From positions 1,243,533-1,275,532 of the forward strand of contig OZ242186.1 of assembly GCA_965205675.1 (NCBI GenBank): a DNA stretch of 32,000 bases, given 5' to 3'. A program made the position numbers and the translations under genes. How positions within the stretch are numbered: position 1 is the first letter of the stretch; each line of letters starts with the position of its first letter. Source of the DNA: Nitrosopumilus sp. (GTDB taxonomy: Archaea > Thermoproteota > Nitrososphaeria > Nitrososphaerales > Nitrosopumilaceae). Positions 4,512 through 18,124 of the stretch are shown piece after piece. Below the pieces are notes generated by a model, which worked only from the letters and a program-made list of their open reading frames with translations, was not told where the DNA came from and searched no databases.

Positions 4512-4826
4512 CCTACATGTAAAGTGGAGGTCCCACTTTCCCAAGTACGGATTTTGGAACTAATCTGCGCAAGTATTACTCTTATTTCTAGAAATTATTC
4601 TGTAGAGATTGAAAAGACATTACTGATATCGTTGATTTTAACAAGATTTTTTTATATATCTCAACTAATTGTTGCCTGAAAACATTTAGTTTAGAGACAT
4701 TATTTTCTTTCAAATTCTTTGAGCTATTCAGACATCTCAAAAACATCATTTGCTGAATCTTTTCAAATTCATGATTAATCGTTATTTTTCACCATATTTA
4801 TTTAATAGAATAACATTTATGATTCA

Positions 4827-6500
4827 TTGGTAAATTTTAGATACAAAATCATAAAGACTGGTTCAGGCTATCCCAAAAGGTTCGCAGTTATAATTTCTGA
4901 GTTTGTCATCGGAGATACAATATCCTCCGATTCATTATTTCAAAGACATAAAGAGGAATTATTACAAAAACATTCTAAACCATCCAGTGTAAAGTCTGTA
5001 ATTTCACAGGCAATGGTATGGTCCAAAAAGCAGGGCATCATTGAGAGATACGATGAACTGTCCGTCCCAAAATGGTTTGAGGAATTAAAAACTGTTCATT
5101 ATTGGCAAGCACAACTTCGTGGCAGCAGATTCAAAAATCTAACTAGGAAAAATGCCAACAGCACAAAAACACAGTATTTGTATCATTTATGGAACTTTAA
5201 CAAATGGCTATCTGATAAGACCTTTGAGGTAAATATGCTTGTAAGTTCTGCAAACAATACCTTTGTTCAAAATACAGAAAAGAGGCAATTTGAAAACATT
5301 GAAGAATTGTTTTTGATACTAGAGCAACCGTTTGCAGAGAAGAAAAATGTGACTAGAATCGTAAAGCAGTATCTTTTAGATGATATACACAGAAACAAAA
5401 AGGCATCATACGTGATGATTATAAAAAACGCGATCAGGTCATATTTTGATAAAAACGAACAGCCCCTGCAAATCTCGTTTAACCCAAAAACACACTACAG
5501 CACTGAAACAGAATACGAGCAGAGCATGTCAGTTTCAGAACTGATGGAATTTCTCACAACTGGCAAGCCGTCAATACTTGAAAAAACCGTATTTTTGTGC
5601 AAGTTTCATAGGGGTCTTGATGTATCAACTTTGGTTGACAGATTCAATTATGAGGCATGGGAGCAGATGGTACAATGGTTTGGCTCTGAGAATCACAACT
5701 CTTGGGACTTGGAGAAATGTCCAGTGCCAATATCATTGACTAGAATAAAAACAGATTACAAGCATGTGGGATTTTTGGAGCAGGATGCAGTAGAGCAATT
5801 GCAAAAATATCTTGATTTTAGAAAGGCAAAAACTGGAAACGGTATGGAGAACAATCAGCCGTTATTCTTAAACAAGTTTGGCAGACCGATAACTGTTGAA
5901 TGGATATTGAGTAGATTCTCAAGTATTGCTAAACGTGCGGGAATCCAAAAGTCAGTAGAGACAAATGGCAGAAAGCAGTACAAGATGGACTCTCACGAGT
6001 TACGGGATTTGCTAAAATCCACACTGATAGATTCTGGGTGCAGAATTGATGTTGCAGACCACGTCATTGGTCACAAGCCAAAGGATTCCTATGAAAAACA
6101 GGCAAAATTGTACCCTGAGACTTTGCGAAAAGAGTATGCAAAGGCATCTAAACGTCTCAACATGTTTACCAAATTTACCTCAGTGGTAAACGGCACCGAT
6201 GATTCAGACGAATTGCGACTGGAACTCAAAGAAAATATGGCTCAGATGGAGAGTTTAAGAAATGATCTTATAATGGAGAAGGCAGTCAAAGACCGAGACA
6301 GGATGTTTGCAGACAGGCAGAGGGAGATAATGCGAGAAATGCAAAGGGAGATTGACGAGCTAAAGTCAGGTACAGACCACAGAACCCAGGAAAACACAGA
6401 GTTTTGCTGTGCCCAATGCAGTACAATTCACTCCAAAAAGTCTTGTCCTGCGTGCAATTCCAAGCTAAAGAGAATTTACGAGGATAAGGTACAAAATTAG
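4827..6500 (+). CDS. int: tyrosine recombinase / integrase, apparently lacking its native start
   Basis: Catalytic-domain signatures: HRGLDVSTL (Arg I region), HELRDLL (HxxR), HVIGH, and the nucleophile Tyr in KDSYEKQ. The C-terminus adds a coiled coil and a CxxC..CxxC zinc ribbon. The frame is open from 4809 but has only a TTG at 4827; the first in-frame ATG is codon 63. Confidence 0.85.
   Translation: MVNFRYKIIKTGSGYPKRFAVIISEFVIGDTISSDSLFQRHKEELLQKHSKPSSVKSVISQAMVWSKKQGIIERYDELSVPKWFEELKTVHYWQAQLRGSRFKNLTRKNANSTKTQYLYHLWNFNKWLSDKTFEVNMLVSSANNTFVQNTEKRQFENIEELFLILEQPFAEKKNVTRIVKQYLLDDIHRNKKASYVMIIKNAIRSYFDKNEQPLQISFNPKTHYSTETEYEQSMSVSELMEFLTTGKPSILEKTVFLCKFHRGLDVSTLVDRFNYEAWEQMVQWFGSENHNSWDLEKCPVPISLTRIKTDYKHVGFLEQDAVEQLQKYLDFRKAKTGNGMENNQPLFLNKFGRPITVEWILSRFSSIAKRAGIQKSVETNGRKQYKMDSHELRDLLKSTLIDSGCRIDVADHVIGHKPKDSYEKQAKLYPETLRKEYAKASKRLNMFTKFTSVVNGTDDSDELRLELKENMAQMESLRNDLIMEKAVKDRDRMFADRQREIMREMQREIDELKSGTDHRTQENTEFCCAQCSTIHSKKSCPACNSKLKRIYEDKVQN
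4839..4855. repeat. att-like core copy L (AGATACAAAATCATAAA)
   Basis: Matches 12050-12067 apart from a 1-nt difference in the A-run. It lies in codons 5-10 of the integrase ORF. Confidence 0.5.
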
Positions 6501-6638
6501 AATTTATTGTTTTTAATTGCTCGAGACAAGTCGCTTTTTCATGTTTCTTGCCAAGATTATCCAGGTAATCTTTTTTGGTTCCGTGCAATCTTTGAGGGAT
6601 AACTGAGATGAATATACTTGTAACCAATTTTCTAAAAT

Positions 6639-6767
6639 TTAATCAGGTTCTGTAAAGTTGTCGCTACCCAAAGTGTGAATTTTCTCCAGATTGGATTTAT
6701 GCCTAGAAATATTTTTTGACAATGTTTCATCCATAACAATTTTCCAATATTTCTTCTGTGTGTTCAT
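6639..6767 (-). CDS. small hypothetical protein (42 aa)
   Basis: ATG lies 3 nt after the stop of the upstream minus-strand ORF (MNTQKKYWKIVMDETLSKNISRHKSNLEKIHTLGSDNFTEPD). It is below the ORF-track cutoff. Confidence 0.2.
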   Translation of the reverse strand: MNTQKKYWKIVMDETLSKNISRHKSNLEKIHTLGSDNFTEPD

Positions 6768-6770
6768 TAT

Positions 6771-6977
6771 CTATCTGGTCATTTTTAATTCTGCTATTCT
6801 TTTGTTTATTCTTTTTTTCTGGGATTGCAGTTCATCTATCTCAGTCTTGCATGCTTTTGTTTTTGATTTGGGATCTGATGCGATTCCACAATAGATTTCC
6901 TTTCGGTCTTTGTCGTCATAATACACATAGTACAGATATTCTTTGTTGTGAACCTTGCGTATTACCTGTGATCCCAT
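6771..6977 (-). CDS. small basic protein, possible DNA-binding accessory factor
   Basis: 68 aa. YLYYVYYDDKDRKEIYCG, a hairpin-like segment, is followed by a coiled coil (IDELQSQKKRINKRIAELK). The overlapping + ORFs are low-complexity F/L/C strings, as expected for antisense artefacts. Confidence 0.45.
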   Translation of the reverse strand: MGSQVIRKVHNKEYLYYVYYDDKDRKEIYCGIASDPKSKTKACKTEIDELQSQKKRINKRIAELKMTR

Positions 6978-7280
6978 ACCCTATCAATTTTTTATTGTCA
7001 TTTAATAGTTTGGTATCAATATTTTATTGATAAAAGTTAATATTGTGGTGCCAACATATTGTTGATACAAAGCAAGAAAAAATAATTGGCTATGATGACA
7101 AATGGTGGGGGATACACCAGAATCTTTAGCAATTCTGAATCAGAGTTGGTATGAAGACAACTGTGACAATCTGAGCCAATCATTTTTTGATTCTCTTGCT
7201 TCTATTTATTTTTTCGAGGTGATCTCTTAATGAACACACAAGAATTCGGAGAGTCAAACAAAGGATGATGCAACCAGGCT

Positions 7281-17209: not shown

Positions 17210-17388
17210 ATTGGAAACTCGAGCAGACTTTTTTTCATTTACAAGAAATTATGAAACTTGTATGCAATTCAGAAATACCATTGCAGATAAAGTTGAGACA
17301 ACAACTGAAAGTCATTCTCCAAAATATCAATGTGCAAGATACATGCACTAGCCAGACATGGGAGATGAATCGGATTGACAAAGTTTAG
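17194..17388 (+). CDS. small hypothetical protein (64 aa)
   Basis: An ATG inside the track ORF 17149-17388 overlaps the methyltransferase 3' end. Confidence 0.3.
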   Translation: MENKVNWKLEQTFFHLQEIMKLVCNSEIPLQIKLRQQLKVILQNINVQDTCTSQTWEMNRIDKV

Positions 17389-17515
17389 AATTACATGCGA
17401 TACTTGTTTTGTTTCGTGGAACACCAAAACTACCTCTCAGGCAAAACAGATAAGAACAATTCATGATGCCATACACCACGACATTCACAACATCAGGATA
17501 GTTGATTGCACATGA
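17375..17515 (+). CDS. small C2H2-like zinc-finger protein (46 aa)
   Basis: TTG start. ..ITCDTCFVSWNTKTTSQAKQIRTIHDAIHHDIH.. Below the track cutoff. Confidence 0.3.
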   Translation: MTKFRITCDTCFVSWNTKTTSQAKQIRTIHDAIHHDIHNIRIVDCT

Positions 17516-17937
17516 CAAAGTTGCATTGCAACATGATTCAAGACATACCTGATTGGAAGACCGCAATTAAAGTTGCAACAGATATTGTATTGGGCGTAAA
17601 CCATAAAACTCATGAACCAGAATCATTCCAAGAAGTTTCTGCAATAATGGGAAAAGCGACTGAAATGTTGTTACTTTCTAAAAATGAAAAATATGGCAAA
17701 GGAAACATGCTTTCTGCTACAAAATTCAATGTTACAGTTGAGCAAGGATTGATGATAAGGGAAAATGACAAAACAGAAAGAATACTTAATCATTTTTCAG
17801 GAATAGATCTCGGAAAAGAAGGGCTGCTAGAATCGTTTGGTGATAAAGCCGGTTACTCTGAAATCGGAATGATGCTGCAGATGAAAACAAAGGATGGAAA
17901 ATCATGGTACGAAATCCCAATAACAAAGGAGGATTAG
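17512..17937 (+). CDS. MazG-like / all-alpha NTP pyrophosphohydrolase-like protein
   Basis: ..LLSKNEKYGKGN..GLMIRENDKTERILNH..EGLLESFGDKAGYSEIGMML fits the K..kYG...........r..DK..R..n....E...Ds..D...Y pattern of the MazG/DUF1599-type fold. Confidence 0.5.
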   Translation: MTKLHCNMIQDIPDWKTAIKVATDIVLGVNHKTHEPESFQEVSAIMGKATEMLLLSKNEKYGKGNMLSATKFNVTVEQGLMIRENDKTERILNHFSGIDLGKEGLLESFGDKAGYSEIGMMLQMKTKDGKSWYEIPITKED

Positions 17938-18010
17938 AAAATGAGCAAGCCCCAACATGATGAATGTGCAGATGACAATCTCAGATATGACCATAACGAT
18001 GAAACTTTTT

Positions 18011-18045
18011 AAAGATCATATCCATACAAACATCATAAACCCGTC
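18011..18045. repeat. att-like core copy R, abutting tRNA 3' end
   Basis: AAAGAT-CATATCCAT-ACAAACATCATAAACCCGTC. It equals copy M except for a 9-nt in-frame insertion and one mismatch. The final GTC is the complement of the tRNA's 3' terminal GAC. Confidence 0.6.
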
Positions 18046-18124
18046 AGGGATGGGATTCGAACACATGGATCCGAGGGGACATGGTTTTTCAGACCATCGC
18101 AATACCATGTTATGCGACCCTGAC
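18043..18124 (-). tRNA. tRNA with GAA anticodon and a 14-nt variable arm (type II-like); no encoded CCA
   Basis: Manual cloverleaf on the minus strand: GTCAGGG TC GCAT AACATGGTA TTGC G ATGGT CTGAAAA ACCAT GTCCCCTCGGATCC ATGTG TTCGAAT CCCAT CCCTGAC. It has a 7-bp perfect acceptor stem, U8, A14, G18G19, U33, the T-loop TTCGAAT, and one U-C mismatch in the T stem. Confidence 0.8.

Follow-up and report, generated by a model that had tools for sequence, protein, structure and literature searches.

The window analyzed here is a stretch of 32,000 nt from a Nitrosopumilus sp. genome (assembly GCA_965205675.1, contig OZ242186.1, positions 1,243,533 to 1,275,532 of the forward strand), which holds a gene for a tyrosine recombinase of 557 amino acids, referred to below as the integrase (4827–6500, plus strand), and a tRNA-Phe(GAA) gene on the minus strand (18042–18124), with about 11.5 kb of mostly small plus-strand open reading frames (ORFs) between them. 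The locus is best explained as a mosaic array of thaumarchaeal cryptic integrated elements (CIEs) around tRNA-Phe, with an intact integrase in the lead and an att-type footprint in the form of a duplicated tRNA-Phe 3′ flank. We put the probability of this reading at roughly 55%. The original prediction for this DNA had been a pair of tandem SSV-style integrations, marked by three att-like sites (L, M and R), in which insertion had cut the integrase gene off from its promoter and start codon. The gene proved to be intact as integrated, its start, promoter and body being contiguous. Mobile-element DNA does lie on a tRNA 3′ flank, as predicted, here that of tRNA-Phe, and M and R do bracket a segment of 5.97 kb that has no integrase.

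The integrase ORF follows an in-frame TAG (4806–4808) and begins with TTG at 4827. It has indeed no ATG ahead of codon 63, the observation from which a lost start had been deduced. When the genomic context of seven homologous genes was retrieved (loci L001, L002, L003, L004, L005, L017 and L018), however, an alignment anchored on the coding sequences placed an ATG exactly at the position of TTG 4827 in 7/7 loci. A conserved upstream start in the homologues argues against the loss, and initiation is predicted at TTG 4827, which would represent an ATG-to-TTG change with respect to all the relatives read. The family comprises at least 679 proteins, nearly all from Nitrosopumilus and Cenarchaeum and mostly from Nitrosopumilus. 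In an alignment of 35 integrase proteins the homologues, 554–603 amino acids in length, cover the window protein from residue 1, and Tyr6, whose codon (TAC) is inside L, is at least 90% conserved. The closest homologues, P0002 (MVSPTYKKLSNACDAMAPRF...) and P0004, are collinear with the window integrase (VNFRYKIIKTGSGYPKRF...) through L, over residues 1–27.

Alignments with homologous loci also revealed a conserved promoter block of 37 nt on the plus strand (4775–4811; TTAATCGTTATTTTTCACCATATTTATTTAATAGAAT), with the consensus TTAATCrkTwkTTTTCACyAwAyTTTATTTAwTArAAT, which ends 15 nt ahead of the start. It is common to the window and to six homologous copies in five loci (L001, L004, L005, L017 and, twice, L018), and the window and L001 blocks are identical at 35/37 positions. 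L002 holds a weaker version; in L003, where KARI is just 50 nt away, the block is not conserved. Similarity between loci begins abruptly at TTAATC. The DNA further left is unrelated, as are the left neighbors, which include radical SAM, thioredoxin and pyrophosphatase genes and an ORF of 153 amino acids. Because the block is kept beside unrelated left neighbors, the sequence preceding L can be assigned to the integrase gene unit and not to chromosomal flank, and the left end of the integrase-bearing unit would lie at about 4775, not at L. The TATA-like sequence ATATTTATTTAATA (4794–4807) is centered about 27 nt ahead of the start codon, the usual archaeal distance for a transcript that starts at or near the start codon. 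The contiguity of block, start and integrase body, here and in homologous loci, beside housekeeping genes, contradicts the claim that integration severed the gene from its promoter and start.

Second copies of the promoter block are found to the left of the integrase gene in three relatives: L005 (9453–9583 / 9845–9981), L002 (9015–9030) and L018 (3477–3900). The second copy in L005 is a 138-nt repeat that takes in the 3′ end of the pyrophosphatase gene, and that in L018 is a decayed integrase pseudogene directly upstream of tRNA-Phe. Such copies were probably left behind by previous integrants from this family and do not point to a general rule. The L018 fragment, which consists of the promoter block and 16 N-terminal codons, was considered as a clean int(N) and rejected; since there are weak collinear matches to residues 104–160 in other frames, it was assigned to a decayed pseudogene. 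A separate observation concerns the 5′ end of the gene in L003 (10001–10030, compared with 4827–4856 in the window). The first 10 codons of its protein, P0112 (ATGGTAAACTCTAGATGGAAAGTCATT), are unusually close to those of the window (TTGGTAAATTTTAGATACAAAATCATA), whereas a whole-protein identity of 40% predicts less likeness there; the 5′ end may have been swapped between elements.

With respect to the type of enzyme, domain, motif and fold agree. The integrase passes PF00589 (Phage_integrase) with 34.6 bits against a cut-off of 27.1, over residues 304–418. It does not reach PF16795 (Phage_integr_3), with 17.3 bits against a cut-off of 27; this is the domain of the suicidal integrases (PMC8371274). 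The catalytic signatures are R...KxxR...Y in SSV-type and R...YxxR...Y in pNOB8-type integrases (PMC8371274). Box II of the window protein, S389-H390-E-L-R393, is invariant in the 35-protein alignment and reads HxxR. Conservation is complete at H390, R393, H416 and Y422, the last of these being the presumed nucleophile, and at least 90% at R262 and H412. Among NCBIfam models only weak matches to XerC, XerA and XerD were obtained (28 bits, against equivalog cut-offs of 220–335), and a sequence-profile search of the PDB gave no match. An AlphaFold model of the integrase (mean pLDDT 77.6) was searched with Foldseek. Archaeal XerA (5hxy) ranked first (E = 5e-7), followed by XerH, lambda Int, XerD and the Tn1549 integrase; the fold also matches Cre, and the SSV1 integrase (3uxu/3vcf) appeared only at ranks 45–48 (E = 0.04–0.06). 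The SSV-style assignment of the original prediction did not survive these comparisons: the enzyme is a classical Xer/lambda-like tyrosine recombinase and is not SSV-type by domain, motif or fold. It carries in addition an N-terminal region of about 230 amino acids before the catalytic domain, a C-terminal coiled coil and a Cys4 Zn-ribbon. Several paralogues of the family are present per genome, each beside variable cargo, and the protein is a mobile-element integrase, not a chromosome dimer resolvase.

The three sites lie in one orientation, on the plus strand: L at 4839–4855 (AGATACAAAATCATAAA), in integrase codons 5–10 (R-Y-K-I-I-K); M at 12050–12073 (core 12052–12073; AGATACAAAAATCATAAACCCGTC); and R at 18022–18045 (core 18024–18045; CCATACAAACATCATAAACCCGTC). 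Their strings and coordinates were exact on re-reading, as were those of the ATG codons at 12039 and 17999. R is the 3′ flank of tRNA-Phe and takes in the last 4 nt of the tRNA; ARAGORN and Rfam both identified tRNA-Phe here, where a minus-strand tRNA had been predicted. M is a second copy of this flank. The two cores form a direct repeat with 21/22 identity, for which 0 matches were expected in 100 shuffles, and blastn gave E = 6e-5. The M/R repeat is real, and its similarity goes on leftward in weaker form.

The case for L is different. It matches M as a 10-mer and an 11-mer with a 1-nt indel between them (17/18 positions), and its gapped local score against the M core, 29, is the third best in the window, behind M and R. 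A score of 29 was attained in 2% of Markov-simulated 32-kb windows, so that the likeness is suggestive and borderline, not compelling. Against the M core the integrase homologues score 13–17 in 7/7 cases, and 4/7 have ATACAA(A/G) at the equivalent Tyr-Lys codons; in the window, in a strongly A-rich setting, the match grows to 17 nt through the Ile-Ile-Lys codons. Since homology is unbroken at L and Tyr-Lys-(Ile/Val) codons are conserved in A-rich DNA, L was read as largely coincidental, and it is probably not a crossover site. Of the proposed three-copy tandem att array there remains the M/R pair only; L is borderline, and the collinear relatives L015 and L016 have no core copies.

Two further observations touch L. 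A 9-nt inverted repeat, TTTATGATT (4816–4824) and AATCATAAA (4847–4855), flanks the TTG start of the integrase gene. Its right arm coincides with the right half of L, and the repeat may serve as an operator or as a binding site for the integrase. The left flanks of L and M were also considered as homologues of the native tRNA-Phe trailer in L007 and L011, a resemblance that was convincing by eye (TTTATGATT ... TAGATACAA). The idea was dropped when a trailer scan of the window ranked neither L nor M and gave a top score of 27, equal to the simulated mean maximum.

The SSV-style reading drew on the three similar sites in one orientation, on the position of L inside the 5′ codons of the integrase gene, and on the ATG at 12039, which overlaps the TGA of ORF 11755–12042 and opens a frame that crosses M in the same phase over ATC ATA AA. 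One thaumarchaeal SSV1-like split integrase, NitEve-E3, is also known (PMC6563490). The N terminus was to be restored by joining the DNA left of M or R to that right of L (MTAKDTKII.. or MKLFKDHIHTNII..). Neither chimera is supported: the near-invariant Tyr is replaced, and neither M-left nor R-left carries the promoter block or an int(N) like that of the family. The ATG at 17999 had been taken to open a peptide homologous to that at M. The left flank of R contains a tRNA-Phe trailer motif (18001–18018, plus strand; GAAACTTTTTAAAGATCA) that is conserved in four genomes, as GAAACTTTTTAArGA at 28–31 nt from the tRNA-Phe end also in L015, L016/L008, L009 and L018. The ATG- or GTG-initiated frames through it differ between genomes, with three different reading frames in use. 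R-left (GAAACTTTTTAAAGA) is therefore non-coding tRNA trailer and not int(N).

The tRNA-Phe gene has features of its own. In the window its variable region is enlarged by a 12-nt insertion, two of its stem pairs are non-canonical, and its Rfam score is 44.8 bits compared to 57–59 in relatives. An insertion of 12–13 nt at this place was seen in all Nitrosopumilus tRNA-Phe examined (the window, L007, L011–L016 and L018), and could represent either a non-canonical intron or a variable arm that is long. The window gene resembles the extra copies found in arrays in L009 and L016. In L008/L016 (11729–12500) and in L009 (4875–5820) three or four tRNA-Phe or tRNA-Phe-like copies, some of them degenerate, recur at intervals of roughly 290 nt, each with some 200 nt of trailer, between an E2-like module (the counterpart of the M/R-bracketed segment) and an MCM-side module. 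These arrays look like accumulated att or tRNA duplications. Because tRNA and trailer are repeated in this way, the tRNA-Phe flank is regarded as a recombination hot spot, in evidence here as the M/R duplication and in relatives as the arrays. L009 (CBDHEM010000078.1) is labeled as a metagenome-assembled genome of a Leptonemataceae bacterium, yet has a tRNA-Phe array of Nitrosopumilus type; its ParB-methyltransferase gene has 74% DNA identity to that of the window, and the contig was probably mis-binned.

Comparison with collinear relatives bears on the division of the DNA into two elements, designated E1 and E2 in the original prediction. E1 was to extend from L to M and contains, after the integrase, cargo of small plus-strand ORFs without assigned function (6501–12049) that is collinear by tblastx with L015, L016 and L019. 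E2 is the integrase-less segment between M and R (12074–18023, plus strand). L015 and L016, from two other Nitrosopumilus assemblies, were reached through homologues of the ParB-methyltransferase; L015 and L017 are parts of one 106-kb contig, which begins 34 nt ahead of its integrase, and L016 is on the L008 chromosome (OZ253567.1). By tblastx, L015/L017 is collinear with the window over the integrase, E1 (8596–11772), E2 (12387–17200), tRNA-Phe, TFB, NT5C, MCM and beyond. For L016 collinearity sets in at window position 8224 and continues through E1, E2, tRNA-Phe and NT5C-MCM; the integrase end is outside that locus. In L019 homology starts at window position 7603, with no integrase on the left. 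The E1 module 7603–11772 thus recurs in relatives, and 11772–12387 is a variable spot: the transition from E1 to E2 is longest in the window (615 nt), shorter in L015 (305 nt) and shortest in L016 (125 nt). L018 has, at the far end of an 11-kb integrase-led element, a small ORF with homology to window 12224–12313. When each relative's own tRNA-flank core was looked for at the junction of E1 and E2 and at the 5′ end of the integrase gene, no copy was found in L015/L017 or in L016, and among the collinear relatives M is found only in the window genome. An E1 bounded by L and M is not upheld, since relatives carry E1-like and E2-like genes contiguously, without L-like or M-like copies.

In the preferred reading, that of a mosaic array of CIEs, the integrase would stay whole on integration and would be transcribed from its own promoter (4775–4811), initiating at TTG 4827. 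The integrase-bearing unit would start at about 4775, and L would be no crossover site. M and R would be a duplication of the tRNA-Phe 3′ flank, the type of footprint left when a tyrosine recombinase integrates a circle at a tRNA end; we infer that they arose by such site-specific integration. The 6-kb module between them would be a decayed element, or a passenger excisable in trans by the neighboring integrase.

Several results weigh against this reading. Neither an empty site nor a circular junction or free replicon came to light. The empty site for which the original prediction had looked to related genomes was sought by scans of tRNA 3′ ends in genomes and metagenomes, which gave 4 + 4 loci, none with the left flank of the window. 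Searches of IMG/VR and of plasmid and phage collections for the integrase were negative, as was a search of IMG/VR for the trailer-plus-core pattern. No left att partner was found for the integrase-bearing unit, and direct-repeat scans of the window and six homologous loci gave matches in the window that were at chance level. In the window L nonetheless ranks third among matches to the M core (P ~0.02), and it lies exactly at the 5′ end of the integrase gene. M is absent from the collinear relatives, so that E2 may never have been a separate insertion, in which case M/R needs another origin. Finally, predicted TTG initiation on an mRNA that is probably leaderless could be inefficient.

The absence of M elsewhere is the starting point of the first alternative, in which the whole is a single inherited composite island, E2 never having been separate. 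The island might be one large element with its own tRNA-Phe, and M a local duplication of 22–37 nt of the tRNA trailer, not an att site, or a relic of an unrelated rearrangement. In L015 and L016 the genes flanking the tRNA on either side are ordered as in the window, with no equivalent of M. The window tRNA has a lower score and resembles the extra array copies in L009 and L016, and the 5′ side of the tRNA is also mobile-element-like, as opposed to L007, which has a PRTase gene there. Against such an island stands the M/R repeat: M reproduces the genome's own variable trailer at 21/22 positions, in the same direction as R and at a distance of 6 kb, and the copied stretch reaches 4 nt into the tRNA. 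An att duplication accounts for this most simply, and a non-recombinational copy has no evident mechanism. Nor could a right end for such a large element be located inside the window. We consider this alternative unlikely, though a serious contender.

A classical attL just upstream of the promoter block was also considered. AAACATCAT at 4741–4749 matches R at 18028–18036, which would make 4750–18045, approximately, one element of 13.3 kb with M as a secondary internal site. The 9-nt match is exact, in direct orientation and 25 nt to the left of the block; thaumarchaeal att sites may be as short as 8 bp (PMC6563490), and repeats or junctions are found directly upstream of the block in L005 and L018. 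A 9-mer is, however, expected by chance several times per 32 kb, this match is weaker than that of L, and comparative support is absent. Such a 13.3-kb element is improbable.

Less probable again is a scheme in which M and R bound an integrase-less 6-kb satellite that is moved in trans by the Xer-like integrase, with L as a third and weaker partner that recombines with M or R, excising the integrase body and its cargo and swapping promoter and start. If true, recombination between L and M or R would amount to a "suicidal" arrangement that is facultative and can be reversed, in a family of non-SSV integrases. The SSV-style scheme as first proposed, with attP in codons 5–10 of a suicidal integrase gene, E1 (4856–12049) and E2 (12074–18021) as tandem integrants and the ATG and promoter now to the left of M, is hardly credible in view of the contiguous promoter block and start, the lost Tyr, the trailer identity of R-left, the HxxR motif, the sub-threshold PF16795 score, the XerA-like fold and the relatives without L or M copies. 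Had it held, the range of self-splitting integrases would have grown to include a large family from mesophilic Nitrosopumilus, its attP lying within the first codons. Given the evidence against it, the locus is probably a further mosaic CIE of the kind already catalogued in Thaumarchaeota.

Integrated elements of Thaumarchaeota have been documented with short att sites (8–26 bp), tRNA targets, tandem arrays and integrase-less members (PMC6563490; PMC8371274), and the description of the CIEs includes TFB-ParB and MCM modules and integrases of the XerC/XerD family (Krupovic et al., 2019; PMC6563490). The locus shares with CIEs the Nitrosopumilus host, a tyrosine recombinase at one end and a short direct repeat at a tRNA 3′ end. 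It also has mostly small ORFs without known function, a toxin-antitoxin gene and a methyltransferase as cargo, an adjoining TFB-ParB pair and MCM module, a tandem or mosaic layout and no viral or conjugation hallmarks. It differs in that no att pair can be defined around the integrase-bearing part, that the M/R core is mostly in the trailer with just 4 nt of tRNA, and that the integrase is long (557 amino acids), with its N-terminal region, coiled coil and Zn-ribbon.

With the SSV1-type, or type I, systems (PMC8371274) it has in common an att-like sequence (L) inside the integrase ORF and an archaeal host. Unlike them it has an unsplit gene, HxxR in place of KxxR, a PF16795 score below the cut-off and a poor match to the SSV1 fold. 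As in the lambda paradigm and the pNOB8-type (type II) systems, the integrase gene is intact when integrated and a tRNA flank is duplicated, and as in type II tandem arrays at tRNA genes an integrase-less neighbor could be mobilized in trans. In contrast to the pNOB8 subfamily (sensu She et al.), the window protein has HELR and no YxxR, and the identity segment is much shorter than the 40–50 bp typical of Sulfolobales. The window integrase works as type II, yet stands outside the pNOB8 subfamily. The catalytic domain has its best neighbors, in structure as in sequence, in archaeal XerA and bacterial XerC/D/H; the window family scores far below their equivalog cut-offs and adds N- and C-terminal domains. 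This large and poorly annotated family has many members with a sharply bounded, conserved promoter block at the element edge. The window enzyme may be attenuated by the replacement of ATG with TTG, its mRNA being probably leaderless.

The cargo is only partly recognizable. The E1 proteins have no Pfam or PHROG match. E2 encodes a RelE/ParE toxin (12983–13321) and a ParB_N-MT-A70 fusion, a methyltransferase (15761–17209), so that domain searches bore out two of the predicted E2 genes, RelE and ParB-methyltransferase. The gene predicted to be MazG-like (17506–17937) has no Pfam or NCBIfam match and belongs only to a PHROG family of unknown function. Modules homologous to E2 adjoin tRNA-Phe in L009, L015 and L016. 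No viral or conjugation hallmark genes were detected among the window proteins in Pfam, PHROG and NCBIfam comparisons.

Beyond tRNA-Phe there follow in order Fic/DOC, TFB (19615–20409), ParB (20379–21248), NT5C (21288–21860), MCM (22973–25051), 25-nt iterons (25784–26008) and an ATP-grasp gene; TFB to the iterons, all on the plus strand, make up a mobile-element module (19615–26008) on the 5′ side of the tRNA. The MCM is divergent, with 640.9 bits compared to an NCBIfam cut-off of 940. Directly downstream of it, seven tandem 25-nt iterons (TTAGTGCCAAACTACAATTTGTTGT) and dispersed GGCGCCAACTGGTGCCAAACTACAAATA repeats occupy 25463–26008, probably the replication origin of a mobile element. A 29-nt motif, TTGTTTGCArGyAGATATGGAAAwAATTT, occurs just to the right of M (12084–12112) and beside the iterons (25538–25566) with 90% identity, and weak likeness around it reaches into the M core. 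It may be a shared arm or regulatory site, and it hints at a descent of E2 from an MCM-type element, by recombination at an origin-proximal site.

The left part of the window, whose overall GC content is about 36%, begins with a partial aEF-2 gene (78–2000), followed on the minus strand by a transposase of the IS66 family (2075–3415) only 75 nt past the aEF-2 stop codon. Casposons in Nitrosopumilus are known to target the ef-2 3′ end (PMC6563490). A copy of IS66 is also present inside the E1-like module of L016. Between the transposase and the integrase ORF there is an AT-rich stretch, and a 36-nt repeat with a spacing of 72 nt (4404–4511) lies inside a doubtful ORF (4398–4679). Near the opposite end of the window the perfect 10-nt tandem repeat CATTCCTTCT is present in six copies (30380–30439) in AT-rich non-coding DNA.

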